Notes: generated by a model from the letters alone, not told the origin. Shown: positions 44,880 to 61,279, counted from the stretch's first letter. The stretch: DNA of 64,000 nucleotides from Spirochaetia bacterium (GCA_034520965.1 JAXHMY010000001.1:192001-256000); one strand, 5' to 3'. Translations and numbers: made by a program.

Positions 44880-44914
44880 AAGCAAACTGGATGTGCCCGC
44901 TTCGCTGGGCAAAC

Positions 44915-44949
44915 AAGAGGCGGCTGTAACATTACAGTCGCCTCTTTTT
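44915..44949 (+). terminator. Rho-independent terminator
   Basis: aagaggcggctgtaa-ca-ttacagtcgcctctt followed by a T run. Confidence 0.78.
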
Positions 44950-45020
44950 AATTTGAGGTTCTTAAAAATAACATTTTGAAAACATCCGGCATAAGCTTTT
45001 TGCACATAGAGCCGAGCGTC

Positions 45021-45251
45021 TTACAAAGCGATATCCTGCCCTTCTACTTCACTTACCAGGGCTTCAAACAGGGTGATAACATCTTTATTCATCTTTTCAC
45101 TTTTATGTTTTTTACACTCGGCATCGTTTAGGGGAAGCTGCTGCCCCTCCGCCGGCTGGAACTCGTGCACTTTCTCAATAGCTGAAGCTTCAACTCCAAA
45201 ATAGAGGTTGGCGATTCGTATAATCCTAACTTTAAAGGTAGACTCTTTCAC
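45021..45251 (-). CDS. Small hypothetical protein (76 aa), N-terminus faintly CheW-like
   Basis: Fills the gap between folE2 and the terminator; 'KVRIIRIANLYFGVEASAIEKV'. Confidence 0.4.
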   Translation of the reverse strand: MKESTFKVRIIRIANLYFGVEASAIEKVHEFQPAEGQQLPLNDAECKKHKSEKMNKDVITLFEALVSEVEGQDIAL

Positions 45252-45285
45252 TCTGTACTAAGTATCGAATTATTTTGAGAAAATA

Positions 45286-46080
45286 TTAAGAACTTACGTC
45301 ATCGGAAGTGATACAGGCATAGGCACTGTGGTTATGGATAGATTCATAATTTTCAACCTCAACCCTGAATTGATCAATCCGCTGATCTGCTTTCAGTTGA
45401 ATCGCTACCTCACGGGCGGCGTCTTCCACAAACCGTGGATTATCATAGGCTCTTTCAGTGATATATTTTTCATCCTGCCGTTTTAAGATAGTAAACAGAG
45501 GTGAGGAGGCCGAAGATTCAGCCATTTCTATCAACTCTTCATACCAAATGAAGTGTCGGGTGTGTACCCGAATATGTATTGTACCCCGCTGATTGTGTGC
45601 ACCGTAATCGCTGATTTCTTTGGAGCAGGGACAAAGGTTGCTTACGGGAACCTCGACGGAGAACCACATTGCCAAGTGGCCATCGCGCTCGGCTTCTAGG
45701 CGACAGGTATACTCCATCAAACTCTTGATTCCAGAAACCGGGGCCGCTTTTCGAATAAAGTAGGGAAAGCTTATATCGATATGGGCCGTTTCACACTCAA
45801 AGGTTTTGCGCATGTCATTCAGAATTTCATCAAGGCTGCTTGGCCAGAGTTTTAACTTGTGCCGCTCAAGAACTTCCACAAAACGGCTCATGTGGGTACC
45901 TCGGTCATGGTGGGGCAGATCTACATACATATTCATCGATGCAACCGTATGCTGTTGTTCACTCTGCCGGTCCAGCACCGTAATGGGATAGCGCAGGTCT
46001 TTTACCCCTACCTTGCGAATTCCCACATTTCTTTCGTCTGATTGGGCTTGAATATCTTTCAACTGTTCTGCATTGTTCAT
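45286..46080 (-). CDS. folE2: GTP cyclohydrolase IB
   Basis: 'KVGVKDLRYP', 'RGTHMSRF', 'LCPCSKEISDYGAHNQRG', 'LKRQDEKY.TE.AYDNPRFVED', 'ESIHNH.A'. Confidence 0.96.
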   Translation of the reverse strand: MNNAEQLKDIQAQSDERNVGIRKVGVKDLRYPITVLDRQSEQQHTVASMNMYVDLPHHDRGTHMSRFVEVLERHKLKLWPSSLDEILNDMRKTFECETAHIDISFPYFIRKAAPVSGIKSLMEYTCRLEAERDGHLAMWFSVEVPVSNLCPCSKEISDYGAHNQRGTIHIRVHTRHFIWYEELIEMAESSASSPLFTILKRQDEKYITERAYDNPRFVEDAAREVAIQLKADQRIDQFRVEVENYESIHNHSAYACITSDDVSS

Positions 46081-46095
46081 TTTACCCCTCCCCTG

Positions 46096-46464
46096 CTACT
46101 GCTCATCCCGCCGTAGAGTTACAAAACTGGTATCGGTTTCCCATAGTATGACTTCCCACAATTCATAATTACCACCCTTCAGGGGTGCCTCAAGCTGCTT
46201 CCAGATCCATTGGGCCATATTTTCAGTGGTGGATTGGGGAATAATATCATTTAAATAACTATGATCCAGCACATCCACAACTTTTTCTTTAACCTCACGC
46301 TTCAGAATAGTAAAGTCGAGTACCATACCGTCCTCGGCGGGGGTTCCTCTGAGGGTGACTCGCAGGCGATATGTGTGTCCGTGCAGGGACTCACACTTTC
46401 CATGATAATCCAAAATGTTGTGGGCGGCATCAAATTTAAAGTCTTTCGACACAAACATACTCAT
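46096..46464 (-). CDS. queD: 6-pyruvoyl-tetrahydropterin synthase family protein (QueD / PTPS-I/III type)
   Basis: 'FDAAH', 'GKCESLHGH', 'GMVLDF', 'LDHSYLN', 'TTEN', 'LWET'. Confidence 0.9.
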   Translation of the reverse strand: MSMFVSKDFKFDAAHNILDYHGKCESLHGHTYRLRVTLRGTPAEDGMVLDFTILKREVKEKVVDVLDHSYLNDIIPQSTTENMAQWIWKQLEAPLKGGNYELWEVILWETDTSFVTLRRDEQ

Positions 46465-46551: not shown

Positions 46552-47993
46552 CTATTTATACCAGCCAAAGGGGCTTTCATCGATATTTACATAGATCGAT
46601 TTTGTTCGGCTGTAGTTCTCCAAGGCCATTTTGTGAACCTCACGCCCATACCCCGACTGTTTGTATCCACCAAAGGGGGAACCTGTGGGAACAAGGTTGT
46701 ATTCGTTCACCCATACGGTACCGGCCTCCAGGCCCTTCGATATGCGAACCGCCCTCCCGATATCCCGGGTCCAAACTGCTCCGGCCAAGCCGTATTCTGA
46801 ATCATTTGCAATCTGCAGCGCCTCAGCCTCATCGCCAAACTTACTCACCGCCAACACCGGTCCAAAGATCTCTTCCCTGGCTATTCTCATCGAGGGAAGC
46901 ACTTTGGTAAAGATAGTCGGCTGCATATAATTGCCGCTCAACGCACAGCCTCCGTAGGCCAATACCGCCCCCTCCTGACTGCCTATCCGTACATACTCCA
47001 GCACCGACTTAAGCTGGGATCGATCAATCATCGGGCCCATCCGGGTGGTTTCCTCAACCGCATTTCCAATCTTCACCCGTTCGAACTCCTCAATCAGCTG
47101 TTCAAGAAAGCTGTCATGGATAGATTCATGCAGCAGCAATCGGCTGCCGGCACAACATACCTGTCCCTGACTGTAGAGTATTCCCATGGCAGCTGCTTCA
47201 ACCGCCTTCTCCATCGGCGCATCGGGAAACACAATATTCGCAGACTTGCCCCCTAGCTCAAGGGTAATCGGAATTACACGGTCCCCCGCCGCCTGCGCAA
47301 TCCGCCGCCCAACCTCGGTAGAACCGGTAAAGGCAATCTTATCAACCCCGGGGTGCTCTACCAATGCCTGCCCACAGACACTCCCCGGACCTGGAGTAAC
47401 ATTTACCACACCGGGCGGGTACAAATCCGCCGTAAGCTCGGCAAACTTCAAAGCCGTCATAGGGGTGTTGGAGGCGGGTTTCAAAACCACACAATTACCC
47501 GCGGCCAGGGCGGGGGCAAGCTTCCAGCCGGAAATCAGAAAGGGGAAGTTCCACGGAACAATCAGCCCCGCAACTCCATAGGGCTCCCGCACTATCACCG
47601 AGAAAGCGCCGGAGTTATGGGTAACCACCGAATCTTCTTCGCTGCGGATAACCCCGGCAAAGTAACGAAACAGATCGACAAAAGCGGCAACATCCTCTCT
47701 GGTTTCAATCAGAGCACGTCCTGTATCCCGGCTCTCCAGCAGGGCCAGTTCTTCAGCATGAGCTTCTATTCGATCGGCAGTATGCAGCAGCACCAAAGAC
47801 CGTTCTGCGGGTGAAATATTTTTCCATCCCGGATAGGCGGCACGGGCAGCTTGGACCGCCGCATCGATATCTTCAGCTCCTGCTGAGGATACAGCGGCTA
47901 TCTGCGCATCTGTCGAAGGATCCACACTTACAAAAGTTTTTAAGAGTGGGCGGTTGTAAACCGCCCACCTATAAAAAGTCCGTATTCGTTCAT
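46552..47993 (-). CDS. NAD-dependent aldehyde dehydrogenase (frameshift near 47940 separates the N-terminus MNEYGLFIGGRF)
   Basis: 'PWNFP', 'KPAS.TP', 'FTGSTEVG', 'LELGGKS', catalytic 'GQVCCAG', 'EEIFGP', 'PFGGYKQSG.GRE'. Confidence 0.9.
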
Positions 47994-48007
47994 ATGTGTG
48001 CCCGGTA

Positions 48008-48899
48008 CTATTTCACAAATCCCTGGGCTTCAAGAAAACGACGTGCAATTACCTCCGGATCCTCACCATTATCATACTCAAGGTTAAGAGCGCTCATAGT
48101 GGCAGTATCGATCTGTCCACCGAGGGCATTCAACACCTCAAGCACCTGAGGGTACTCCTGCTGGATTCTTTCTCCAACTACATAGGCTCCCGAATAATCC
48201 GGAAAGAAATTCTTGTCATCCTCCAGCATTACCAAATTGAGTTTGGCTATCCGCGAATCAGTTGCGTAAGCCGAGGCAACATCTACCTCTTTCCCGTCGA
48301 TAGCACGGTAAATTAGGCCATACTGCATGGGAAGAACCTTCTTAAAATCGATACCGTAGTGCTTCGACCAACCCGGATGTGCATCCGGACGGGTGTCGTA
48401 ATTTTCATCGCCCGCCAGAATCCAATCCTCCGCGTAGGGAGCCAGATCGGAAGCCTTTTCCAGGTCATACTCCTCGGCGGTCTCTTTCCGCACCGCAAGC
48501 ACATAGGTGTTGTTAAACCCAAAGGGCTCGGACCAGGTCATTCCGAAGTTTTCTTCAAAGCCGGCTTTTACACGCCTATAAGTTTCTTCGGGCGCCAAGT
48601 TCGGCCCCTCGTAGCGCAAAATTCCTGTCAACTGAGTTCCGGTCCAGGTCGGGTACAGATCAATTTCATCTCCAACCATGGCCTGGTGCAGTACCGCAGA
48701 GGCCGAGAGATTCCGTATTTACCTTAGAGGATAGTTCTGTGTTCTCCTCGATGAGAATTTTGGCCATATGACCCAAAATCACCGTCTCGTTTACATTCTG
48801 GGCCGCTACTCGAATAGTAGTTCCCTCCTGCTGTCCACCGGCGCTGAGACCGGCCACAATTACCGTAAGAACCAGTAAAATCGTGATACTCTTTTTCAT
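48008..48899 (-). CDS. Osmoprotectant (OpuCC/ProX-type) ABC substrate-binding protein (frameshift near 48705)
   Basis: Signal peptide + 'AGGQQE'; 'IDLYPTWTGT', 'PFGFNNTY', 'SAYATDSRI', 'LEDDKNFFPDY'. Confidence 0.85.
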
Positions 48900-48929
48900 C
48901 AGATGCTCCTTTCCTTTGCGACAGGTTGT

Positions 48930-49664
48930 TTATTCCGCATTTTCAACGGTTAAGGCCTGTTGCTGTTTGAGTTTATGTTCATATCGTCGCTCACGACGAG
49001 CAATTCGTATGGCACGTTTCTCGGGGCGTAGATGGTGGCGCAAAGCCTTCAGGCCTTGATCGCCGGCTAAGGCCAGGAGAGTAGCCGGAAAAGCCCCTGC
49101 AAAAATCACTTCGTTTCGAATCTGGGTGAGCCCTGAAAAAATGAGCCTTCCGAGCCCTCCTCCGCCAATGGCTGCGGCCAAAGCCGCGGTTCCGATAATC
49201 CACACCGTGGCCACCCGAATTCCCCCGATTATTACCGGCAGTGCCAGGGGAAGCTCAACCCGTGTCAAAATTTGCATATCCTTGAGCCCCATCCCGCGGG
49301 CCGATTGGACCAGGGAGGGAGGTACATTTTTTATTCCAATATACGTATTCTGCAGCACCGGCAGCATTGCATACAAAAACAGCGCAAACACCGCATTATC
49401 ATTTCCAATTCCAAATATAAAAATGAGAAAACCTAACAGAGCCAGGCTTGGAATAGTCTGAAATACATTCGCCACTCCAATTACGTAAGGCGCGATTTTT
49501 TCATTACGGGTCAGATACACACCCAGGGGAATGCAGACCACCAGGGTCATCATAAGAGCTATAAATGAAATTGCCAGATGTTCAAACATGAGGCTAAATA
49601 TTCGATCGTAGTGACGAGCGGTAAACTCCCACAGTAATACAAAAAATCCCTTATCGCTTATCAT
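48930..49664 (-). CDS. Osmoprotectant ABC permease (OpuCB/CD-like)
   Basis: 'QTIPSLALLG', 'LYAMLPVLQNTY', 'ARGMG', 'VELPLALPVI..G.R', 'GGGGLG'. Confidence 0.9.
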   Translation of the reverse strand: MISDKGFFVLLWEFTARHYDRIFSLMFEHLAISFIALMMTLVVCIPLGVYLTRNEKIAPYVIGVANVFQTIPSLALLGFLIFIFGIGNDNAVFALFLYAMLPVLQNTYIGIKNVPPSLVQSARGMGLKDMQILTRVELPLALPVIIGGIRVATVWIIGTAALAAAIGGGGLGRLIFSGLTQIRNEVIFAGAFPATLLALAGDQGLKALRHHLRPEKRAIRIARRERRYEHKLKQQQALTVENAE

Positions 49665-50830
49665 ACGTGTTCCACTCCTTGCTCGCTTTTTTGCTCTGAG
49701 GCGGTATTCTGCTGTGCGCTGCGGGTGAGCCGGTGAATTGTAAGCCGTGCTACACCTGCGGCGGTAATCAAACCTAACAATTTGCTGCTCCCGTCAATAA
49801 TCGGAATCGGCAATTCCCTATCGGCCAGCATCTGCGCCGCATCGCGAATAGTGGCATCCTCTATCTTTAACTTGCGATCCGTGCGGATTGCTTCGTCAAC
49901 CGGACCGTTACGGCGGGCGATTTTCTTCACTTCATTCAGAATGACCATTCCGCTCCACACTCCCCGGCGATTGACCACCTGCGCCGTTTCGTATCCAGCC
50001 TCTTCCATTAACTCCAGTACCTCCGAGGCGGGCATCTGCGGCTGTACGGTAAGCGGTGCAGTTTCTATCAGCGGGCTGATGGAAGCATCAGGTGAAATTT
50101 TACTCAACTGATCCTCTCCGATAAAATCACGTACAAAACTGTTTTTCGGGGAGTTCTTAAGCTCCTCCGGGGTTCCAACCTGCTCGACCCGGCCTCCCCG
50201 CATTAACACAATCCGGTCGCCCAGCTTTAAAGCTTCATCAATATCATGGGTTACAAAAATGATGGTCTTATGCAGCTTTTCCTGCAGATCCAGTAGTTCT
50301 CCCTGTAGATGCTCGCGACTAATGGGGTCCAGGGCCCCGAAGGGCTCATCCATCAAAACCACGTCTGGTTCCACCGCCAGAGCCCGCAGCACACCGATTC
50401 TCTGTCGCTGCCCTCCGGACATATCCGCCGGCAAGCGGTACTTAAAGGTATCCGGATCAAGCCCCGCCATCTCTAAAAGCTCATTCACCCTGCGATAGAT
50501 CCGCGGTTTATCCCATTTATGCAGATGCAGCACCATGGCGATGTTCTCTGATACCGTAAGGTGGGGCATTAAGCCTGTTTCCTGAATTACATAGCCTATA
50601 TTCCGCCTCAGCTTGACCGCATTGCTTTCCCGAATATCTTTCCCATTTATCAGGATTCTCCCGGTGCTCACCTCTTCCAGACGGTTTATCATCTTCAGCG
50701 AGGTGGTTTTACCACAACCCGAGGGGCCGATGAACACCACACACTCGCCTTTTTGCACATTCAGATTAAGCGAGTCTACCGCTTTAGTTCCATCGCTGTA
50801 TATCTTAGTAACTCCTTCAAATGTAACCAT
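49661..50830 (-). CDS. Osmoprotectant ABC ATP-binding protein with CBS domains (OpuCA-like)
   Basis: 'GPSGCGKTT.LKMINRL', 'LRRNIGYVIQ', 'MSGGQRQR', 'MDEPFGALDPI'; C-terminal CBS pair. Confidence 0.92.
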   Translation of the reverse strand: MVTFEGVTKIYSDGTKAVDSLNLNVQKGECVVFIGPSGCGKTTSLKMINRLEEVSTGRILINGKDIRESNAVKLRRNIGYVIQETGLMPHLTVSENIAMVLHLHKWDKPRIYRRVNELLEMAGLDPDTFKYRLPADMSGGQRQRIGVLRALAVEPDVVLMDEPFGALDPISREHLQGELLDLQEKLHKTIIFVTHDIDEALKLGDRIVLMRGGRVEQVGTPEELKNSPKNSFVRDFIGEDQLSKISPDASISPLIETAPLTVQPQMPASEVLELMEEAGYETAQVVNRRGVWSGMVILNEVKKIARRNGPVDEAIRTDRKLKIEDATIRDAAQMLADRELPIPIIDGSSKLLGLITAAGVARLTIHRLTRSAQQNTASEQKSEQGVEHV

Positions 50831-51942
50831 TATTCTCCCCTAAACTTTTGTGTAACCTTATCGAGAACTGTGAGAAAGGTGTTGTTTTCACTGGGTTTTC
50901 CCACTGTTACCCGAATATGACTGTCTAAACCCCAACCTGCCGCTGAACGCACGATGACCCCTTGCTTTAACAGATCATGGGCTGCTTGATCCGCCGGGAA
51001 GGCAGCATCAAACAGGATAAAATTGGCCTGGGAGTGGTATACAGTAAATCCCCTTTCTTCTAAAGCTGCCTGCAGACGTTCGCGCTCGGTTTGTACCACA
51101 GCAATTGTCTCCGCAACAGCTGCCTGCTCTTGTTCAAGGGTTGCCCAGGCACCGGCCAGGCCAATCCGGTTGGCGTTAAAGGGCTCTGCCACCGTATCGA
51201 TCACTTTTATCAAGTCCGGGTGGGCAATCGCATACCCAAGGCGCGCACCGGCCAGTCCGTACGCTTTAGAGAAGGTACGAACCGATACTAGAGGCAGCTC
51301 TTCTTTAATTAATTCTACCCGATCCGGCAGCAGGCTCTGGTCTGCAAACTCCGCGTAGGCCTCATCCAGTACCAGCCAGCAGCCTTCCGGGAGGCTCCGG
51401 GCAAAACTTAGTAGGTCGGCCTTGTCTACAACAGTTCCGGTTGGGTTGTTCGGATTACAGAGCCAAACCACGCGGGTATTCGGACGGACGCTCTCCCGCA
51501 GTTTTTGCATGTCAATCTGCATATCCGCCGTGACCGGAGTGTGTTCAACCTTCCCTCCCATTAGGCGGGAGATTTCGCGGTACAGCCCGTAGGTGTACTG
51601 GGGAATCAGGATGTGTGCTCCCGGCTCAACGAAGGTTTTCGCCAGGGTTTCCAGCATTCCCCCGGCCCCATGGGAGACGGCAATCCACCGCTCATCAAGG
51701 CCGTACATCTCGGCTATTTTGCGCTTCATCTCGACAAAACTATTATCTGGGTAGGTGTGCAGCAGGAGCACCTCCTGCTGCATTGCTTCGACCGCCGCAG
51801 GATACGGCCCCCAGGGGTTCTCATTTGAGCCGAGCTTAATTACCCGCTCCAGCTCATATTGCCGTTTTACTTCTTCAATAGTCTTACCGGCCACATAAGG
51901 TTGCACATCTTTAATATCAGGCCGTATTCCGGCAAGTTTCAT
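50830..51942 (-). CDS. HisC-like PLP aminotransferase (fold I, subfamily I-beta)
   Basis: 'KLGSNENP', 'YPD', 'CNPNNPTG', 'LDEAY.EF', PLP lysine 'RTFSKAYGLAGARLGY'. Confidence 0.9.
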   Translation of the reverse strand: MKLAGIRPDIKDVQPYVAGKTIEEVKRQYELERVIKLGSNENPWGPYPAAVEAMQQEVLLLHTYPDNSFVEMKRKIAEMYGLDERWIAVSHGAGGMLETLAKTFVEPGAHILIPQYTYGLYREISRLMGGKVEHTPVTADMQIDMQKLRESVRPNTRVVWLCNPNNPTGTVVDKADLLSFARSLPEGCWLVLDEAYAEFADQSLLPDRVELIKEELPLVSVRTFSKAYGLAGARLGYAIAHPDLIKVIDTVAEPFNANRIGLAGAWATLEQEQAAVAETIAVVQTERERLQAALEERGFTVYHSQANFILFDAAFPADQAAHDLLKQGVIVRSAAGWGLDSHIRVTVGKPSENNTFLTVLDKVTQKFRGE

Positions 51943-53648
51943 TCTTTTTCCGCTCCTTTAAATATCTCTGCTTCCATGTGTTCTTCCACGAGTTCGATAA
52001 TAGTCGGTTTGTTTTGTTCAAAGGCCTGTTGTACCGTGTGGCGAAAAACTTTGCCCAAATTGGAACTGGCAAAGCTGCGGTAATCTGCACCATAGGCTGC
52101 AGAGAGCAGCTCAAAGTTAGGCGGGGTGATATCAACTGCAATCCGCTTTCCAGGATGGCGAAGCTCTTCGGTTTTGCGAATCTCTCCATAGCCTCGGTTG
52201 TTCCAGATGATAATTGGAAGCCCCTGGCGCTGCTCCGCAGCAACCGCCAACTCCTGTAGGGTAAATTGAAAACCCCCGTCACCGGTAAGGACCACTACCG
52301 GAAGCTGCGGACGGCCGGCCTTTATTCCGATCCCGGCCGGCAGGGCATAGCCCAAGGCACCGAAACCAACCGGATGTAGAAACTTACCGGGAGAATCAAC
52401 CATCCACTCACTTATCGCCGCATAGGCGGGGGTAGTCATATCGGTCACACACACTCCCTCTGTGGGCAGTGCGGCCCGCAGTTCCTTCAACATATGCAGG
52501 ACCCGGGATAACTCCCCCTTCGGGATACCGGTAACCGTCGCAAGTTCCATCTGAGAGTGTTTTAAAGCCGCCTGTACTTCCGCAGCCATAGAGGTTCTCT
52601 CGTCCGCCTGCATGTTCAACTGCTCCAAACGAACGTTGATACCCCGGAGTACCCCGGCGGCATCTGCTTGTATTGCCCCCTCTGAATGGGGAAAACGTTG
52701 GAGTATTCCCTCTTCCAAATTGATAAGCAGCAGCTTGGGACCTAGATCGAGTTGAGTTTCCCAAAGATCGGTTGCAGACAACTGAGTGCCCACTGCAATG
52801 ACAAGATCCATTGACTCGAGCAGACGGGCGGTACCGGAGAAATGGAGTCTGGTGCCTAGAGACAGCGGGTTATCCTCGGCTACCACGCCTTTCCCGGCGG
52901 CAGTAGTGACAATAAGCGCGCCTGTAAGCTCCTGCAGTTTTTGCACTTCCGCAGCACTTTTAATTGCTCCACCTCCGCAAATAAGTGCAATGCGGGGGCT
53001 GCGGCTTATTTTCTCTGCCGCAGCATGTATGATTTTTTCAGCTTGCGAGGGCGTATCCTGCACTGAATGGACACTCACGCCCTCAAGCCGGGCTATGTCC
53101 CCGTGAGAACCGCTTTTATCCCCGGTAAGCTGAGACTGCAGCACATCGAGGGGGATTTCCACATGAACAGGTCCGGGACGACCACTGTTCGCCAGCTCAT
53201 ACGCAGCACTGATGGTCGACTCGATCTTCTCTGCCTGTTCGATCCGCCAGGCGGCCTTTGAAATTGAGGCGGTCATACCGGTTGAATTTTCCAGCTCATG
53301 GAGAAAGCGGGAATGTCCGCCGATAAGAGCACTCGGTATTTGGCTGGAAATGACCAGCATTGGGATGCAGTCATGATACGCCTCTGCCATGGGTGTCATA
53401 ATATTGGTAAGACCGGGCCCTGTAATTACCAGGGCAATTCCGGCTTTTCCAGTAACCCTTCCCAGCCCCAACGCCATAAAACCGGCCCCGCTTTCGTTGC
53501 GACTGGTGATATGCCGCAGCTTTGAGTGGATTAAATAATCGTAAATATTCAAATTATGTATACCCGGAATACCGAATATACATGGGGCATCAAGCTTCTC
53601 AAGCGAATGAACTACCTCAGCTGCTCCCGTTATGGCGCTACCCTCCAT
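51939..53648 (-). CDS. ThDP-dependent 2-oxo-acid decarboxylase-like protein (AruI / ALS-like family)
   Basis: 'FGIPGIHNL', 'RNESGAGFMA', 'ITGPGLTN', 'LHEL', 'RPGPVHVEIP.D', ThDP motif 'GDGGFQFT...WNN'. Confidence 0.88.
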   Translation of the reverse strand: MEGSAITGAAEVVHSLEKLDAPCIFGIPGIHNLNIYDYLIHSKLRHITSRNESGAGFMALGLGRVTGKAGIALVITGPGLTNIMTPMAEAYHDCIPMLVISSQIPSALIGGHSRFLHELENSTGMTASISKAAWRIEQAEKIESTISAAYELANSGRPGPVHVEIPLDVLQSQLTGDKSGSHGDIARLEGVSVHSVQDTPSQAEKIIHAAAEKISRSPRIALICGGGAIKSAAEVQKLQELTGALIVTTAAGKGVVAEDNPLSLGTRLHFSGTARLLESMDLVIAVGTQLSATDLWETQLDLGPKLLLINLEEGILQRFPHSEGAIQADAAGVLRGINVRLEQLNMQADERTSMAAEVQAALKHSQMELATVTGIPKGELSRVLHMLKELRAALPTEGVCVTDMTTPAYAAISEWMVDSPGKFLHPVGFGALGYALPAGIGIKAGRPQLPVVVLTGDGGFQFTLQELAVAAEQRQGLPIIIWNNRGYGEIRKTEELRHPGKRIAVDITPPNFELLSAAYGADYRSFASSNLGKVFRHTVQQAFEQNKPTIIELVEEHMEAEIFKGAEKE

Positions 53649-53903
53649 AGCAATATAAAATTACTGCTCTAATTATTTAAATTTTGCTTTTTCCAATAGA
53701 ATTGAAGTTTTTTTAGTATATATAATATTATATTAGTTAGTCAATTATTTGTTTTATATATTTTGAAATATTTTTCTATTACATATATTATAAGTATTTA
53801 TATTATTATTATACTCTAATACTCGCTTATTTATTTTCTACTATAAACTTTTCTGCTATACTTTTTTACATACTGTACTAAATGTAATTAGTTTTACCAC
53901 AAC

Positions 53904-53937
53904 AAAAAGAGCCTGTAAGCATATTGCCTACAGTCCC
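53904..53937 (-). terminator. Orphan terminator-like hairpin (minus strand)
   Basis: Minus strand gggactgtaggca-ata-tgcttacaggctc TTTTTG; no annotated minus-strand gene directly upstream. Confidence 0.45.
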
Positions 53938-53984
53938 TTCACTGATCAGACCTCTTCTTTTGCTGATTCTTTTTGATTGATACG

Positions 53985-54036
53985 TTGACTGCCCGGTTTA
54001 ATTTCCTTATCATTAAGTTGGTTTACGCAACCTACT
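53985..54036 (+). promoter_or_regulatory. Promoter of the ROK regulator with XylR-like operator
   Basis: TTGACT-17 nt-TATCAT followed by AGTTGGTT-tacgc-AACCTACT (54016-54036). Confidence 0.7.
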
Positions 54037-54104
54037 CTTCGTTGCCACAGGTGCATCAATCTAATTGATTGTTATTTTAAAGAATTATGGGTAGTTAAAA
54101 GACA

Positions 54105-55244
54105 ATGAACGCTGACAGACAAAAGTATGATAACACAGTACAGAGTCATTATATTATCGGAATCAACGATACCAGGGTCCTTCGGGTATTGTGGACCGAA
54201 AAAACTATGAGCAGAATTGAACTGTCACGCTTTCTGGGCTTGGATAAATCCACCATTTCCAAGATTGTGAATAATCTGCTTAAAACAGGACTCATTAAGC
54301 TGGTGTCTGAGGGCGATTCCAGCCCCAACGGAGGCCGCAAGCCGACGTACCTTTCGATCAATCCGAATTATGGTGCTGTCCTGGGTATTGAAATGCAGCC
54401 GGATTTCTTTATTGCCGTACTAATAGACTTTTCCGGCAAGATTGTATTCCAGACAAAGGAACCTTTGTCACTCGAGGGAACTACCGTACCCGAGGCGGCA
54501 TATAAAATATACCAGAGCGTTGTAAAACAACTCGATGCTGTACATATACCTATAATCGGCGCGACTATCGGAGCCAGTGGATTGATAAACCCCTATGATG
54601 GTATTGTGTATCGATCAAATCCCCTCAGCATCACCGATCCGCAGCATATGTATGACGAACTCGATGATCTTTTTGATTTTCCAGTTCTCATAGACAACGA
54701 TGCCAACTGCGGAGCCTGGGGAGAATTAGCATTCAAAAAGGAAAAAATACAGGATGATGATTTTATTTTTGTGCTGGGAGAAACCCGCAAGAACCGGGTT
54801 ATTGATGCCCAGTACAGGGGTATTGCGATCGGCATGAGTGTGGTGATGGATCATAAGGTTCATTACGGCCAACAGTATTCGGCCGGCGAATTCCAGAGTA
54901 TTTTCCGCACCGGCAAATATCTGAATCAATTTTCCATTACAGACACAGAAGCCGAGATCTACGAGCAGGAGGAGAGACTGTTTGCCCAGGTGGCACATGA
55001 ACTTTCGCAGAATGTTGCCTTGCTGGTAAACATACTCAATCTACAGCAGGTTGTTTTGGGCGGAAGAATGGAGTACCACCCCGAAATACTATCTATTATG
55101 CAGGATGAAATAGCTAAAAACTGGTCGTATGACACCCCGGCTGAGGTTCTGGTACGCTTCAGTACCTTGCAGGAACTCACTATTGCCTATGGTGCGGCAG
55201 GTATGTTCCTGGAGGCGTTTTTCGGGCTACCGGACATCTCCTGA
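54105..55244 (+). CDS. ROK-family transcriptional repressor
   Basis: HTH 'SRIELSRFLGLDKSTISKIV', 'GGRKP', 'PVLIDNDANCGA.GE', 'SAGEF'. Confidence 0.9.
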   Translation: MNADRQKYDNTVQSHYIIGINDTRVLRVLWTEKTMSRIELSRFLGLDKSTISKIVNNLLKTGLIKLVSEGDSSPNGGRKPTYLSINPNYGAVLGIEMQPDFFIAVLIDFSGKIVFQTKEPLSLEGTTVPEAAYKIYQSVVKQLDAVHIPIIGATIGASGLINPYDGIVYRSNPLSITDPQHMYDELDDLFDFPVLIDNDANCGAWGELAFKKEKIQDDDFIFVLGETRKNRVIDAQYRGIAIGMSVVMDHKVHYGQQYSAGEFQSIFRTGKYLNQFSITDTEAEIYEQEERLFAQVAHELSQNVALLVNILNLQQVVLGGRMEYHPEILSIMQDEIAKNWSYDTPAEVLVRFSTLQELTIAYGAAGMFLEAFFGLPDIS

Positions 55245-55335
55245 CTCAAGCGGCCGGTTAACACCCACAAACTGCGAACAAGGGCCGCACAGGCAACTCC
55301 GTTCGTCTTTGAAAACGTGTAGTTGAAATCAGCTG

Positions 55336-56736
55336 CTATTCTGCGGCTGAGTATACCCGAATATAGTCTACTTCCATCTCCTGCGGGAAGACCGTCGTAT
55401 TATCCGGATACCCCGGCCAGTGCCCGCCGACCGCCACATTCAGAATGAAAAAGAATTTCTGGTTGAATACCCATTCGCCATTGGAGAACCGCTGCACATA
55501 CTCGGATGTAACCTGGTGATAGGGTTCTCCATCTACAAGCCATATAATCAGGTCTTTATCCCAGATAATGCTAAACACATGGAAGTCATCGGCAAAGCTG
55601 GAATCGATTTCGCAGGCACCGCTGATACCGCCCCCGCCTGAATAACCGGGTCCATGGACGGTTCCGTGCACTACAGAAGGATGCTGCCCCAGCATTTCCA
55701 TAATATCAATCTCTCCGCTTTGCGGCCAGCCGACGTCAGAAATGGATTCACCCAGCATCCAGATTGCCGGCCAGATCCCCTGTCCCCGCGGCATCTTGGC
55801 CCGTACGTCAATTCGTCCATACTGCACTGTGAATTTGTCCTGACTTATCATGCGGGCAGATGTGTAGTCGTATTCACCAAATTGATCGCTGCGGGAATCC
55901 TCACGGGCGCGAATCACCAGATGCCCGTCTCGAATGAATGCGTTTTCCAGTTCGGAGGTGTAGTACTGGCGCTCGGCATTACCCCAGCCGGGAATGCCGT
56001 TGGCGTGTCCGTTGCCGATTTCGAAACTCCATATATCGGTGTTAATTTCCTCGCCGTCAAACTCTTCGGCAAAATTGAGAGCCCATTCCCGGGCAAGATA
56101 CGAATCCATGTCGATTTCTTCCTGCCCTAGGGCAAGATCAACCTCGCCGACCGGAACAAGGGATGCCGCCGAGAGCCGTATATCACCAGTCTCACGCCCT
56201 AACTCGAACTCGAAACGGGCGTTAACATCGGTTTCGTGCAGCATGGTAAAAGTGAACGAGTGTGCCTGCGGTTTATCGCTGAGCTGTACCATAGTACCAC
56301 CGGCGTCTCCCCCTTGACCGGGGTTATACGGTGTCCACTCGCGACCAGCGGAGCCGCCGATCTTTACCTCGATTTCGCGCCTGGTATCCGCCCAAGCAAT
56401 AAAGTCCACCCGGTATTTTTGCCCTTGCTGTATTTCAATTGGTGCTTGCAGCACCTGTACCGACCAGGTATTGGGTCCGCCGTGGGTTATATCAATATGC
56501 AGGGCGTCATTTTTCTGCTGGTACTCGGCCTGAGCCCCATCGAACAAAAGCATCATCCAGTTATGGCGGGTATCATAGGCGCCATCATCCCGGGGCGGCG
56601 GCACATCAGCCAAAGCAGCCGAAAACTCGGCATTGCCCAGCAAATTCCGCTCATCTATATTGAGGGTAATTCGGTCACTTGCACAGGATGCTAGAGTAAT
56701 AAATACGATACACGTCAGTATAAAACCTTTCTTCAT
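55336..56736 (-). CDS. Lipoprotein endo-beta-1,3-glucanase: CBM4-like module + GH16 laminarinase domain
   Basis: Lipobox 'LASC'; 'WSVQVLQ...GQKYRVDF.A'; GH16 'GWGNAERQYY', 'YTSAR', 'WPAIWMLG', catalytic 'GEIDIME'. Confidence 0.9.
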   Translation of the reverse strand: MKKGFILTCIVFITLASCASDRITLNIDERNLLGNAEFSAALADVPPPRDDGAYDTRHNWMMLLFDGAQAEYQQKNDALHIDITHGGPNTWSVQVLQAPIEIQQGQKYRVDFIAWADTRREIEVKIGGSAGREWTPYNPGQGGDAGGTMVQLSDKPQAHSFTFTMLHETDVNARFEFELGRETGDIRLSAASLVPVGEVDLALGQEEIDMDSYLAREWALNFAEEFDGEEINTDIWSFEIGNGHANGIPGWGNAERQYYTSELENAFIRDGHLVIRAREDSRSDQFGEYDYTSARMISQDKFTVQYGRIDVRAKMPRGQGIWPAIWMLGESISDVGWPQSGEIDIMEMLGQHPSVVHGTVHGPGYSGGGGISGACEIDSSFADDFHVFSIIWDKDLIIWLVDGEPYHQVTSEYVQRFSNGEWVFNQKFFFILNVAVGGHWPGYPDNTTVFPQEMEVDYIRVYSAAE

Positions 56737-58104
56737 AATTCTACCTTTTCGTTTGTAACCGTAGTAATAGAATGGGCCGGAATAGCAGCATTGACAGTAT
56801 CATTGGTCCATTTTGCCTGCAATGATGCCGATGTATCGGCATCACCGCGATTTAGAATCACACAGACAACTGAACCATCTATGTTTTGAAAAGCAGACAC
56901 TTCCAGTTCGGTCGATGGATCTGACAGTTCACAGAATAGACACATCGCACCGGTATGGATGTAACGACTGAAATGACCGATGTAGGCATAGGATGACTGG
57001 TAATGAACTGTATCGGCATCAAGATCGGCAATGACAGGTGCATCACAGTAGTTGCCGACATGATTCGGCCCCCCCTGTATATCAAGGATCATGTTCCAGT
57101 CGAGCCATAATGTTACACCGGCATTCAGATCTCCGATGATGTTGTGAGCATAGGTCTCGCCACGATCCCATTGACCCAGCTTGACACCGCCTTCGATGCA
57201 GCCTTCCGAGAAAATGATCTCCTTGTCGGGGTAGGTTTCGCTTGGTTTCTCTCACCAGATCAAACTGATCGCCGGAGTACCAGTGAATCGCCTGTCCGGT
57301 TATGTACTGTGCGGTCTCCGGATCGGTCAGCACATCGGCAGCGCGATTAAACATTTCGTCACGATTGTGATCCCAGAAATATATACCAACGTCCTGCATT
57401 CCCTGACTGTCCAACAACGGACCAAGATACTCCCGTATAAACAAGGCCTCATCCGAGGCGGAATATCGGCAGCTGTCCCAGGTCTGGGTGGCTTCAGGTT
57501 CGTTTTGCACAGTCACCCCGAACACTTGAAATCCGTTGTCCCGCAGCTCGGTTATGTAACGAGCGAAATACGCAGCCCAGGCAGAGCGGTATTCCGGCAG
57601 CAATGCACCGCCGTTGTTCATTGATTGATTTGATTTCATCCATGCAGGAGGGCTCCATGGCGACAGCAGCAGGGGTAAATCGGTTCCGGCAGCTTTATAT
57701 GCTGCATGAATGAAGGGCCACAAATACTGTTTTTCCCGTTCACATGAAAACGACCATAGTTTTTTATCGCCGGGAATGTCCACAGCTGCATAATTATCGA
57801 GGGAAAAGTCACAGCTGTTCATATGCGTTCTGCCAAAGGTGTAGCCGATCCCGTGTTTAGCATCAAAATATGCTGTCATAATCTGCTGTTGTCTGTCTTT
57901 GGAAAGCTGTGACCAGACATACGCGGCTGATTCGGTAAAGGCGCCTCCGAAGCCGCGGAAAAGGTCCGGTCTGCGTTTTTCTCCTATTGAAATAACAGTG
58001 TCCGCGGATACCGAGGAAGGAAGTGGTTCTACTGTACGCCAGATCGAAGAGCTGTGTTTTTGGCTGGATTGAATAATTCGGGCTGTCATTGTCCTCTCCT
58101 TCAT
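56733..58104 (-). CDS. GH30 glycoside hydrolase (glucosylceramidase / beta-1,6-glucanase-like; frameshift near 57235)
   Basis: 'GFGGAFTESA', 'SCDFS', 'SPWSPPAWMK', acid/base 'QNEP', 'HWY'; after the shift, nucleophile 'FSEGC' and 'DWNM.LD..GGPNH'. Confidence 0.88.
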
Positions 58105-58536
58105 TTACGAAATAGCGAAATCAGCCGCAATCTGGCGAAGCTTTTCACGATTTTCGGCGGTCAGACGACATAGCGGCGAATTGTGTTCTCCGGTATCGGT
58201 ATTTTCCACAATCATTACTCGGGCATCAGGCGAAAGGGTATGCGAATGCCATACCCCTCGTTTTACGCTATATACGGCTCCCGGCTGCAGCTGGATTCCA
58301 TGAATATCAGTGATGGTTTCCTTACCTTCACCGATATACAGCACACAGCTTCCCTGCACCAAGAGGAAGACCTCAATGGTTTCGTTATGCTTCTGGAAGT
58401 GCGTAATGTTTTCGGGCAGCAGCTCATAATGATAATTGAGGACTGCAACTCTCCATCCGTTATAATCGACCACTGGTTTGTAACCGATCTCCGAATATGT
58501 GATAACTTCTACCATGTGATCCAGTGCTTTGCTCAT
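58105..58536 (-). CDS. Cupin-fold protein of unknown function
   Basis: 'KHNETIEVFLLVQG', 'PGAVYSVKRGVWH', 'IVEN..T'; coupled to the GH94 and GH30 genes. Confidence 0.75.
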   Translation of the reverse strand: MSKALDHMVEVITYSEIGYKPVVDYNGWRVAVLNYHYELLPENITHFQKHNETIEVFLLVQGSCVLYIGEGKETITDIHGIQLQPGAVYSVKRGVWHSHTLSPDARVMIVENTDTGEHNSPLCRLTAENREKLRQIAADFAIS

Positions 58537-61260
58537 TCTGTGCTTCCCGCATGTACAGGACCGAGTTCAACCACTAAATGACAGGATTTTGGGGGTAGAT
58601 GTGCGGCCTGAATGAGTACACCGCTGCCTTCTCGACTGAACTCAACCTGTGTACCATCAACAGCAACGGATGTGATGCGGCCGGCCACTTCAGACGAAGC
58701 AGCAGACTTTCGGTACTCCACGTGTAGCGGATAGTTACGGAAGTAGGTGTTTACCTCAACTGTTCGATTAGTACCCCATTGCTGCGGTGTGAGTTGCGGT
58801 TCAAGCAGCAGATCGCCGTATTTCCCGCGTACACCAAACATTCGGGTGACAACGGTTAATAGATACCAGCTGGCGGAACCGGTGAGATATGCATACAGTC
58901 CGCGCCCGGCAGGGTCAAAATATTCGGGAATACCGGGATACATCCGTGAGGATGGAAAGTGCGATGCCGCTGAGAATATTGCTTTTAACGCCCGCCAGCC
59001 GGCCTCGGTTTTACCGCGTGCATACAATGCGTTGGCAAACATTACCGACATATGACTGAACATCGCACCGTTCTCTTTATGTCCATAGGCAAAACCGAAA
59101 CAGCGACCCAAATCAAGCTTAACTTCGTTAAAGTCGGTGTTCAGTCGATAGCCCCCGACAGATTCATCCCACAAATTGGTATCGACGGCGGATAGTATCC
59201 CTTTCAGCTGCTGTTCATCAGCGACATTCCCCAAAATCTGGAACACCTGGCCGGTAAGCGTCATGCACGTGGCGGAATCAAAATCTCCCTCTATCCCGGC
59301 GACCGCTGTTATCGTAATAGCCGTTAAACCATCCATAACCCTTGGAGGCATCTGATTCACCATGACCGCGCACATGAGCAATAATAGACTCACTTTTTTG
59401 TTTTAGGTCTGCGGCCAGTTTTTCGTGATTTAGATTGATAAACACACCGCTTGGGCCGTTTTTACAGGCCGAGAAAAACCGCTGCAGCACATCATTCTTT
59501 GCTTTAGGATTACTGTAGTCAATATCCGACGCGGTGTAGTGATCGAGCAGCATCAGTAGTTCTTGAGCCACTACAATCGGCCGCTGTGTTGACTTGGCAA
59601 CTTTCAACACAGCATCAGCCAGCCATTGGAGGTTTGAGGCATACAAACCGGTAAAGGCAACACTCTCTCCCCCCTCGGCAGCCATATCCAACCCATCGTT
59701 CCAGTCCCCACCTTCCAGGCGAATAGAATTGTGAGATCCAACGTGAAAAAATGCCGACAGCTGCTGTAGAAGCAGGTGTTCCAGCACGCTGCCGAATACA
59801 ACCTCTCCATTCTGATTGTACAATGTTGTACTGTCGGAATGGTCCTGTTGGATTTTTTGCTGAGCCCGTGCCCATTGGGGATCGGAAAAATACTCCTGTG
59901 ACTCGAAAAGAAATGATAGATCGCCGGTTTGGTCTATATACAACTGAATAGTCAGCAGCGGCCAGGCGCCATGATCCATCCAGACTCGCGAAATATTATT
60001 TCTGTCGGCAATAAATTCACCGGGCCGAGTTCCGATGATAGTGGCATTGGTTCCATCAAACCGAACACCCGCCAGATTCTGCAGCAGAGTCTCACGAACC
60101 GATTCAGGCTCCATGAGCAATAATGCAAGACAATCCTGCCAAAGATCGCGCCACCCTCGACCGCCTCGTCCATAATCATGATGGGGTAGAAATGAACAGC
60201 CGTAGATGCGCCGCAGAATCGGCTGCAGTGATACCCAGCGCATCCAGGAATCAAAATCAGGGTCGGCAGTTGTACATGCTACTGTATTCAGTTTCCCGTG
60301 CCAAAAGGTACGGTTGTTCTGCAATGCGGTCTCAAATTTTTCTGCCCCGCCATAGGCGTTTAGAGCGGCACTGGCAGTCGACTGGTCGGGGAAAATGCCG
60401 GCTACTATATAGATCTCATGTGTGCCGCCGGGCGGAATCTCTGCCGGTGCAAATTGAAGCGCTCCAACCGCTTCACTCCCGTGAACCACAGCTCCTGATT
60501 GCAATAGATTTTTTCCGGCATATTCATCATCATAGATTACCCGGGGACGCTCGGCATCTCCGCCCTCACCGATAAATACATCGAGATCAGGATAGCAGCC
60601 GACAGGAGTGCTTGGCCGGCTGTCGGCACCTAACACCGCATATACGGTGGTGTTACGGACATGTCCCCGCTCATCAAAACTCATTGTCGGAGTCAGATAC
60701 ACCCCGTTAGTGCCTACCTCAGTTACATTCAGCAATGATGTTACATGACGATGATCGCGCAAGGAATCAGCGGATCGCCCGTACATGGGTATAACCACTG
60801 TAGGAACAACGCGAACCGGCTGTTCACCGGCGTTGCGCACAAGCAGGCGGGTTACCTCGGCATGTACGTCATCTATCGGGACAAAGGTTGTCATTTCTGC
60901 CGACAGTTGTGCCTCGGCGTTCTCTCGCAGGATAGTGTGCCACAAAGGCCCGGCCTTCACACCTTGAGTCTCCGCGTTGTGCGTCTTTTGCTCATGCGAT
61001 CCTCCGGTTACAGACCACACCTGCCCATTTTCAATCTTCAGCCAGGCGGTTCGGGTCAATCTGGTATTGTGCAGATCTACCACCGAGACCGGGGGCATTA
61101 AAAAATGATTCTGATCGATCTTGGCATCGCCCCCGCCTCGCGGGGTAATGGAGGCCATGTACCCTGCCTCATTGGCAAGCGGAAAATACAAGCCGCTTGT
61201 ACTGCCGGCATCTTTCAGATAAAAATCTCCCCGTTTATTCAGGTATTCACACATAGACAT
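58533..61260 (-). CDS. GH94 glycoside phosphorylase, laminaribiose-phosphorylase-like (frameshift near 59295)
   Basis: 'YGRSAD.LRDHRHVTSL', 'RRIYGCSFLPHHDYGRGGRGWRDLWQD', catalytic 'DWNDGLD', 'AYGHKENGAMFSHM', 'YLTGSASW'. Confidence 0.85.
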
Positions 61261-61279
61261 AAAATTAATCTTCCTTACT

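Follow-up and report, generated by a model that had tools for sequence, protein, structure and literature searches.

A conserved, uncharacterised gene cassette joining a betaine-class importer to a predicted transaminase-decarboxylase-dehydrogenase route in anaerobic bacteria

A 64,000-nucleotide stretch of DNA from a Spirochaetia bacterium (GCA_034520965.1, JAXHMY010000001.1:192001-256000; the whole stretch is called the window here, and positions are counted from its first letter) carries six genes between 46552 and 53648 that combine an importer of the betaine class with an aminotransferase, a predicted decarboxylase and an aldehyde dehydrogenase. Conserved and so far uncharacterised, the cassette represents one version of the transaminase-decarboxylase-dehydrogenase route. 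The full-text literature, with most subscription papers and supplements outside the search, yielded no description of these genes as a set; the initial annotation of the window had likewise known of none in spirochaetes.

The six-gene cassette and its integrity

All six genes are on the minus strand and closely packed, as the initial annotation described them. The first encodes a thiamine diphosphate (ThDP)-dependent enzyme of 569 aa (51939..53648), a predicted 2-oxo-acid decarboxylase from a clade of anaerobe proteins related to AruI. It is followed by an aminotransferase of the HisC/Pat type (class I-beta; 370 aa, 50830..51942, TIGR01141) distinct from the housekeeping HisC, an ATP-binding cassette (ABC) ATPase of the ProV/OpuCA type with CBS domains (389 aa, 49661..50830; TIGR01186, PF00005, PF00571) and an ABC permease (244 aa, 48930..49664; PF00528) with weak best matches to ProW and ChoW. 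The last two genes, both frameshifted, encode a substrate-binding protein of the OpuC/OpuB type (48008..48899; PF04069, the OpuAC family; 296 aa in relatives) and an NAD(P)-dependent aldehyde dehydrogenase (ALDH; 46552..47993; PF00171; 480 aa in relatives). The first four genes overlap by 1-4 nt, the binding protein follows after 30 nt and the ALDH after 14 nt. Neither an ilv small subunit nor a his gene lies near the cassette, again in agreement with the initial annotation, and the six genes probably work together as a single unit for uptake and conversion.

The frameshift first noted in the binding-protein gene was borne out, and the ALDH gene proved to be broken as well. Compared with the relatives G007 and G002, the binding-protein gene (start ATG 48899) has a 1-bp insertion near 48709, and the ALDH gene, which starts at ATG 47993 and not at GTG 47925, has a 1-bp deletion near 47942. 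Both genes are intact in G002, G004 and G007, which have the same six genes (binding protein 296 aa, ALDH 480-484 aa). In a control comparison of 195 orthologue pairs based on G007 open reading frames (ORFs) of at least 200 aa, some of which may be spurious, 168 were intact in the window's assembly, 17 were frameshifted and 10 had an in-frame stop. This rate predicts about 0.5 breaks per 2,350 codons, so that the two breaks seen are slightly high and not surprising. At about 96%, the identity between the broken genes and their orthologues exceeds that of intact neighbours (85-95%), and neither gene has extra stops. Assembly error is the likely cause of both indels because the relatives are intact, the control is frameshifted too and the identity of the broken genes is about 96%; on the same three grounds, true pseudogenisation was rejected as the main reading.

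Predicted functions of the enzymes and the importer

Among 51 NCBIfam families, the ThDP enzyme scores best with PRK07524 (AruI; 5-guanidino-2-oxopentanoate decarboxylase), at 443.6 bits and below the cut-off of 500. In two FastTree trees, whose roots differed and in which a PA1417-like paralogue stood in for the AruI of Pseudomonas aeruginosa, the anaerobe proteins were separate from the proteobacterial PRK07524 members with Shimodaira-Hasegawa (SH) support of 94 (64 rows) and 96 (28 rows). With the AruI group the enzyme shares H31 (the H after GIPGx), L116-H117-E118 (LHE), Y/F-G-E-I and GDGG, where acetolactate synthases have G-G-A, FQE and G-M; the roles of these sites are presumably those known from the ThDP fold. 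E489, near the predicted substrate pocket, is found in 118 of 119 homologues and also in the AruI group. The enzyme is not an acetolactate synthase: it reaches 280 bits with TIGR00118 against a cut-off of 538, lacks the motifs of that family, and two true copies are encoded elsewhere in the genome (687 and 730 bits), one of them beside ilvN. A 2-oxo-acid decarboxylase of AruI-related type is thus predicted. The 2-oxo acids on which AruI and its Sinorhizobium homologue IlvB1 are reported to act carry a terminal cation (PMC7268258). A search of plasmids returned no close member of the clade (best match of the ThDP enzyme about 35%, of the binding protein 39%).

The aminotransferase passes the HisC model TIGR01141 with 329 bits (cut-off 276.55), and its best match in the PDB is 4r2n, the phenylalanine aminotransferase of Mycobacterium tuberculosis, through which the pocket of the histidinol-phosphate aminotransferase HspAT was mapped. 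It shares the pyridoxal phosphate (PLP) lysine (K226), both C-terminal arginines and the aromatic residue stacking on PLP with HspAT and with Pat/ArAT of M. tuberculosis, as these are described. Asn103 and Tyr261, reported to line the histidinol-phosphate pocket of HspAT (PMC4703992), are without equivalents: in all 49 clade aminotransferases there is Gly or Glu at position 94 and Phe at 255. E123, E253 and F255 are invariant in the same 49 proteins, and the two glutamates, which the described ArAT lacks, are near the predicted substrate pocket. The aminotransferase is not the genome's only HisC, since a second copy beside hisD on contig C8 passes the same model. This separate hisD-hisC pair and the lack of a his-gene context rule out a housekeeping HisC. 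The best NCBIfam match of the ALDH, scored on a 457-aa open frame, is betaine-aldehyde dehydrogenase (TIGR01804; 508 bits, below the cut-off of 668.6).

The ATPase scores 369.9 bits with TIGR01186 (cut-off 326.6). OpuBC/OpuCC are the best sequence and fold matches of the binding protein, analysed as the intact G007 orthologue, and an AlphaFold model (pLDDT 82) confirmed the fold; searches of the ESM Atlas returned family names alone. Likeness to OpuB/OpuC of Bacillus subtilis extends to the fold (TM score 0.75-0.83 by query), about 37% identity, the CBS-domain ATPase and the binding site. Y71, Y117, Y197 and Y221 (OpuBC/OpuCC chain numbering), which we take to be the aromatic cage positions, align with W85, Y132, Y211 (in SAYATD) and Y235 (in FFPDY), kept in 120, 120, 117 and 120 of 120 homologues, and Q19, T74 and N115 correspond to Q34, T88 and N130, kept in 117-120 of the 120. 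The initial proposal of a cage retained with a substitution thus held for four aromatic residues, with Trp in place of Tyr71; the tyrosine of the LIY motif that it had included is not one of the four. The cassette protein differs from OpuB/OpuC in this Trp and in D168 and Y193, invariant additions across the 120 homologues, as well as in H71 and N166, which are invariant too; the system has a single permease and is linked to a transaminase and a decarboxylase. By PF04069, the four-aromatic cage and the CBS-domain ATPase, the importer is classified in the OpuC/OpuB betaine class. The cage does not name the substrate, because such cages and this fold accept varied ligands.

Conservation of the gene neighbourhood

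Strong matches were found in 4 of 9 genomes of the same genus and in none of 31 other relatives. Wider tallies are lower bounds, since part of the candidates was scored per genome and G000 and G007 were missed in the set of 401: at least 13 of 401 genomes at class level, at least 28 of 201 in the phylum to which G401 (an Acetomicrobium record) belongs, at least 2 of 399 (class) and at least 2 of 201 (order) for G403, and at least 4 of 301 in the order that includes G405, where one match falls outside the clade. Named records with matches belong to Spirochaetota, Synergistota, Bacillota and Desulfobacteraceae. The cassette is not confined to spirochaetes.

Neighbourhoods were compared in 50 loci, obtained from 84 loci of the anaerobe clade after removal of 18 duplicates (leaving 66) and of 16 loci with less than 5 kb downstream of the ThDP gene. 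A five-gene core (ThDP enzyme, HisC-type aminotransferase, ATPase, permease and binding protein) is present in 41, from Spirochaetota, Synergistota and Bacillota, so that the gene set is conserved together across three phyla. The ThDP and HisC genes stay adjacent even where the ABC genes have moved (L027, L202). To this core, 13 loci add the ALDH and 16 an aldehyde:ferredoxin oxidoreductase (AOR; AFOR domains, counted at 45% identity or more to the enzyme of L021). Over all 50 loci, ALDH occurs in 15 and AOR in 17, with the AOR placed upstream or downstream depending on the locus, and the two never occur together. The ThDP enzyme is expected to release an aldehyde, because two unrelated aldehyde-oxidising enzymes fill the same slot; this exchange is the best evidence supporting an aldehyde intermediate. 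The initially proposed route from amino acid through 2-oxo acid and aldehyde to acid, with a betaine-class importer, is well supported by the protein families, the linkage and the ALDH/AOR exchange, and we consider the three-step route very probable.

The binding protein is 60-70% identical across the three phyla and linked in 42 of the 50 loci; where it is missing, another betaine-class binding protein replaces it in two. This linkage, and the separate OsmF-type betaine importer encoded in the genome, argue against an ordinary broad osmoprotectant importer that is co-regulated with the enzymes yet chemically unrelated to them. That idea draws on the identity of the cage residues with those of the broad binder OpuCC and on a few loci that possess the ThDP gene and lack the transporter (L035, L204). 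A related idea, that the unit is decaying in this genome, draws on the two frameshifts and is countered by the sequence identity and absence of extra stops in the broken genes. We regard this pair of explanations as highly improbable.

One of the closest known systems is the arginine transaminase route. AruH-AruI-KauB(-GbuA) of P. aeruginosa and, as reported, AspC-IlvB1 of Sinorhizobium meliloti (PMC7268258) share the predicted three steps with the cassette, and the ThDP enzyme shares the motifs of the AruI group. The cassette differs in having a HisC-type for a class I-alpha/gamma aminotransferase and an OpuC-type for a Lys/Arg/Orn importer, in the lack of a nearby guanidino hydrolase, in the replacement of ALDH by AOR in Synergistota and in its anaerobic hosts. 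Guanidino or arginine neighbours (ureohydrolase, a gene resembling dimethylarginine dimethylaminohydrolase or arginine deiminase, Lys/Arg/Orn-binding protein) were found in none of the 50 loci. Of 75 proteobacterial AruI-type loci, by contrast, a guanidino-processing gene is found in 56 and a binding protein of the Lys/Arg/Orn type likewise in 56, and the cassette's binding protein occurs in none. Conversion of arginine or methylarginine to (methyl)guanidinobutyrate by a HisC-type transaminase and a betaine-class importer would agree with AruI being the nearest characterised family of the ThDP enzyme, and the conserved glutamates would fit any cation. A ureohydrolase 37-47% identical to the P. 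aeruginosa or marine gene is encoded in G000, G004 and G401, and in four marine metagenome loci (L159, L161, L163, L164) genes for a HisC-type aminotransferase, a PRK07524 enzyme and a ureohydrolase stand next to each other, which suggests an arginine-transaminase-like operon with a HisC fold replacing AruH. However, the marine HisC proteins are 31-34% identical to the cassette's and lack E123 and E253, the cassette's ThDP clade is separate from the PRK07524 group and below its cut-off, arginine deiminase is encoded in all five cassette genomes tested, and ureohydrolase matches are partial and weak in G002 (94% complete), with none above about 30% identity in G427. We consider arginine unlikely, and weaker than the initial annotation had it.

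The surroundings of the cassette are less constant. A sigma-70-like promoter match, TTGACT-N18-TATACT (10/12), lies on the minus strand at 53715..53744, about 67 nt before the ThDP gene; it is a consensus match only, in a region with 20 such sites against 11.9 in shuffled sequence. No Rfam riboswitch was found at gathering score. On the same strand, 88 nt downstream of the ALDH gene with no terminator-like match between, are queD and folE2 (45286-46464). They were rejected as cassette members, as they adjoin it only in three loci of the same genus; homologues near L110, L195 and L198 stand apart from the cassette there. In G007 and G002, folE2 is separated from a xanthine-permease-like gene by two genes (about 560 and 168 aa), neither of which is present in the window (44880-45290) or in G004. 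On the other side, about 14.6 kb of sugar-utilisation genes (window 53900-64000 and beyond; a ROK regulator and glycoside-hydrolase-like ORFs) part the cassette from the genes directly upstream of it in G007, G002 and G004, and additional frameshifts seem to have split the ORF pairs at 56733-58104 and 58533-61359. Further afield, in one Synergistota lineage (L194, L195, L110, L198) genes for an ODP-family metallo-beta-lactamase and a methyl-accepting chemotaxis protein (MCP) domain lie between the binding protein and the AOR, and two Synergistota loci (L190, L197) have tandem copies of the binding-protein gene. Loci in or near the Desulfobacteraceae branch (L111, L115, L155, L222) lie beside genes for IclR regulators and corrinoid or uroporphyrinogen decarboxylase (URO-D)-family methyltransferases, with an MttB-family gene at L115 and LarA-type racemase/isomerase genes at L115 and L155.

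Candidate substrates and the meaning of the route

A cationic side chain is indicated, because the aromatic cage of the binding protein, E123/E253 of the aminotransferase and E489 of the ThDP enzyme are conserved; all three proteins point to it indirectly and none names the cation. The initial expectation of a cationic amino acid is backed to this extent. We somewhat favour a methylated-onium amino acid that is taken up and shortened by one carbon. The lead candidate remains N6-trimethyllysine, as in the initial annotation, and it is put forward tentatively. It is favoured because the cage suits a trimethylammonium group, because the 2-oxo acids accepted by AruI-type enzymes have their cation at a distant, terminal position, and because of a gene set on the Psychrobacter plasmid pP32BP2 (NZ_MK422609.1 31479-48003; L230/L235). 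On this plasmid a PRK07524 gene and an ALDH gene are flanked on one side by a carnitine monooxygenase module and on the other by a glutaryl-CoA dehydrogenase (E 1.8e-185) and a succinate-glutarate CoA-transferase-like gene. This could be the set expected for conversion of valerobetaine, a five-carbon betaine, to trimethylamine and glutarate. The genes were named acetolactate synthase, betaine aldehyde dehydrogenase and crotonobetainyl-CoA reductase by the authors who described the plasmid; they found the last module, which was published under the name of anaerobic carnitine (CAI) genes, to show no activity (PMC6514802).

Several observations weigh against this interpretation. At the level of the route, 18 of the 50 loci have neither ALDH nor AOR within the fetched flank, the choice between the two follows phylum and may reflect a single replacement event, and two of the six genes are broken in the window's assembly. 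As to the substrate, the cages of OpuC-type proteins are broad in what they accept, and ergothioneine and nicotine-type compounds are further ligands of this fold. Most of the 75 proteobacterial loci come from Mesorhizobium and are not independent, the four marine loci do combine a HisC-type gene with PRK07524 and ureohydrolase genes, and the genome has an agmatinase/guanidinobutyrase-like gene, located away from the cassette. The plasmid pP32BP2 is one locus, transposase-rich and without a transaminase, and belongs to the proteobacterial clade (35% identity to the window's ThDP enzyme). Finally, in seven of the 50 loci, from at least three branches, a D-2-hydroxyacid dehydrogenase gene lies beside the ThDP gene, six of them without a HisC orthologue, and we know of no natural hydroxy analogue of trimethyllysine.

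These dehydrogenases bring in a candidate missing from the initial annotation, nearly as good as trimethyllysine. In this close second, itself doubtful, S-methylmethionine (through the HisC-type enzyme) and D-4-dimethylsulfonio-2-hydroxybutyrate (DMSHB; through the dehydrogenase) would both give 4-dimethylsulfonio-2-oxobutyrate (DMSOB), then dimethylsulfoniopropionate (DMSP)-aldehyde and DMSP, and anaerobes would make DMSP from scavenged precursors; we give this sulfonium route a modest chance. Two of the dehydrogenase loci (L020, L025) use a different betaine-class binding protein. That of L020 has as its best PDB match 7YLE, DmpX with DMSP (E 3e-27), and keeps W35, T64, W84, W152, Y200 and W202, six of eight pocket residues of DmpX. 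In all seven dehydrogenases W or F stands three residues after the catalytic His, matched by eye to what is apparently the position of W318 in CtBP, a residue that contacts the sulfur of 4-methylthio-2-oxobutyrate (MTOB) (PMC6303947). DMSHB is described as a natural osmolyte that accumulates in nature (PMC11306096). Genes for an MttB-family protein and a LarA-type isomerase lie close by in one metagenome locus of the Desulfobacteraceae branch, a second such locus has a corrinoid protein gene, and the window's genome encodes a homocysteine S-methyltransferase-like protein, scoring below cut-off. A homocysteine S-methyltransferase-like gene is located head to head with an agmatinase/guanidinobutyrase-like gene on contig C3 of G000 (L213:250-2352).

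Other points count against the sulfonium compounds. DMSOB is unstable. DMSP-aldehyde is reported to be unstable too (PMC11464771). DmpX-subfamily structures are few in the PDB, CtBP is among the top matches of the dehydrogenases and not the first, and the dehydrogenase might work in the reductive direction, as an electron sink. DmpX-like proteins also include binders of histidine and proline betaine. Entry through a hydroxy acid is not specific to DMSHB, since a hydroxy-acid oxidase stands beside the PRK07524 gene and a ureohydrolase in P. aeruginosa. There, the PRK07524 gene has the ureohydrolase and two transporter genes on one side and a GlcD-like FAD oxidoreductase on the other (L229:2529-10010), a layout that suggests a route from a guanidino 2-hydroxy acid. 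In relation to known DMSP synthesis from S-methylmethionine (MmtN/BurB bacteria, Spartina SDC-DOX, Wollastonia transamination) and from DMSHB (DsyGD), the cassette would share the end steps from DMSP-aldehyde to DMSP; compared with the MmtN, BurB, DsyB and DsyGD systems it has no methyltransferase gene among its six, so that an imported precursor would be needed. The known bacterial route from S-methylmethionine begins with decarboxylation, followed by amine removal. The same order is described for Spartina (PMC11464771). DMSOB appears as a label only in published pathway schemes (PMC9135737, PMC13360808), and no description of a ThDP enzyme acting on it was found in the literature.

The hydroxy-acid dehydrogenase would serve as an electron sink in an Ehrlich-type route from histidine, methylhistidine or an aromatic amino acid to imidazole-acetate or an aryl-acetate. 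AORs commonly oxidise aldehydes from amino acid fermentation, and the aminotransferase both passes the HisC model and has as its best structure match the aromatic aminotransferase 4r2n, with the equivalents of L112 and F246 in common. CtBP-type pockets also bind phenylpyruvate (PMC5536941). Urocanase was not found in three spirochaete genomes, but it is already present in both Synergistota genomes tested, and the onium cage of the importer, the AruI-like ThDP enzyme with its pocket glutamate and the two invariant aminotransferase glutamates are difficult to reconcile with such substrates. We think this route improbable, more so than arginine.

To return to methylated-onium amino acids, an amino acid whose methylated side chain is permanently cationic would enter the cell through the OpuC-type ABC transporter, and the HisC-type aminotransferase would pass the substrate's alpha-amino group to a 2-oxo acceptor, which gains the nitrogen. 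The AruI-related ThDP enzyme would then take off CO2 to give an onium aldehyde, and ALDH, or AOR in Synergistota, would oxidise it to a zwitterionic acid without oxygen. The product, delta-valerobetaine from trimethyllysine or DMSP from S-methylmethionine, may be kept as a compatible solute or excreted. An acid as end product fits the failure to find the MttB demethylase in any of five cassette genomes and class III CoA-transferase in the three spirochaete ones (G000 86% complete), although class III CoA-transferases are present in two of the five, both Synergistota, which counts against this view. Retention as a compatible solute is plausible, by analogy with the conversion of choline to glycine betaine through OpuB and GbsAB. 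A gain of nitrogen and reductant with excretion of the acid is equally open.

We give about even odds that the cassette represents an undescribed, oxygen-independent trimming of methylated-onium amino acids (in a variant, D-2-hydroxy acids) to betaine-type acids by fermenting anaerobes of saline sediments and digesters. At the same balance of chances, the trimming would take trimethyllysine to delta-valerobetaine without DavB, or S-methylmethionine/DMSHB to DMSP by way of a ThDP-dependent DMSOB decarboxylase. The described bacterial conversion of trimethyllysine to delta-valerobetaine needs a monooxygenase (PMC11773067). In that account, DavB/DavA share the predicted substrate and product of our lead candidate, and DavB is a monooxygenase acting via an amide, where the cassette would use transamination, ThDP-dependent decarboxylation and NAD- or ferredoxin-linked oxidation. 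If trimethyllysine is the substrate, an anaerobic route would account for delta-valerobetaine made where oxygen is absent; a role in the gut is not implied, because the clade is rare in a Clostridia-type sample (at least 2 of 399). If the sulfonium compounds are the substrates, the cassette would reveal DMSP producers among anaerobes that escape the methyltransferase markers now in use, and would assign a gene to the decarboxylation of DMSOB. Whichever of the two is right, a pathway would be gained for the linked AOR subfamily and for several hundred proteins that now carry the annotation HisC, acetolactate synthase or 5-guanidino-2-oxopentanoate decarboxylase.

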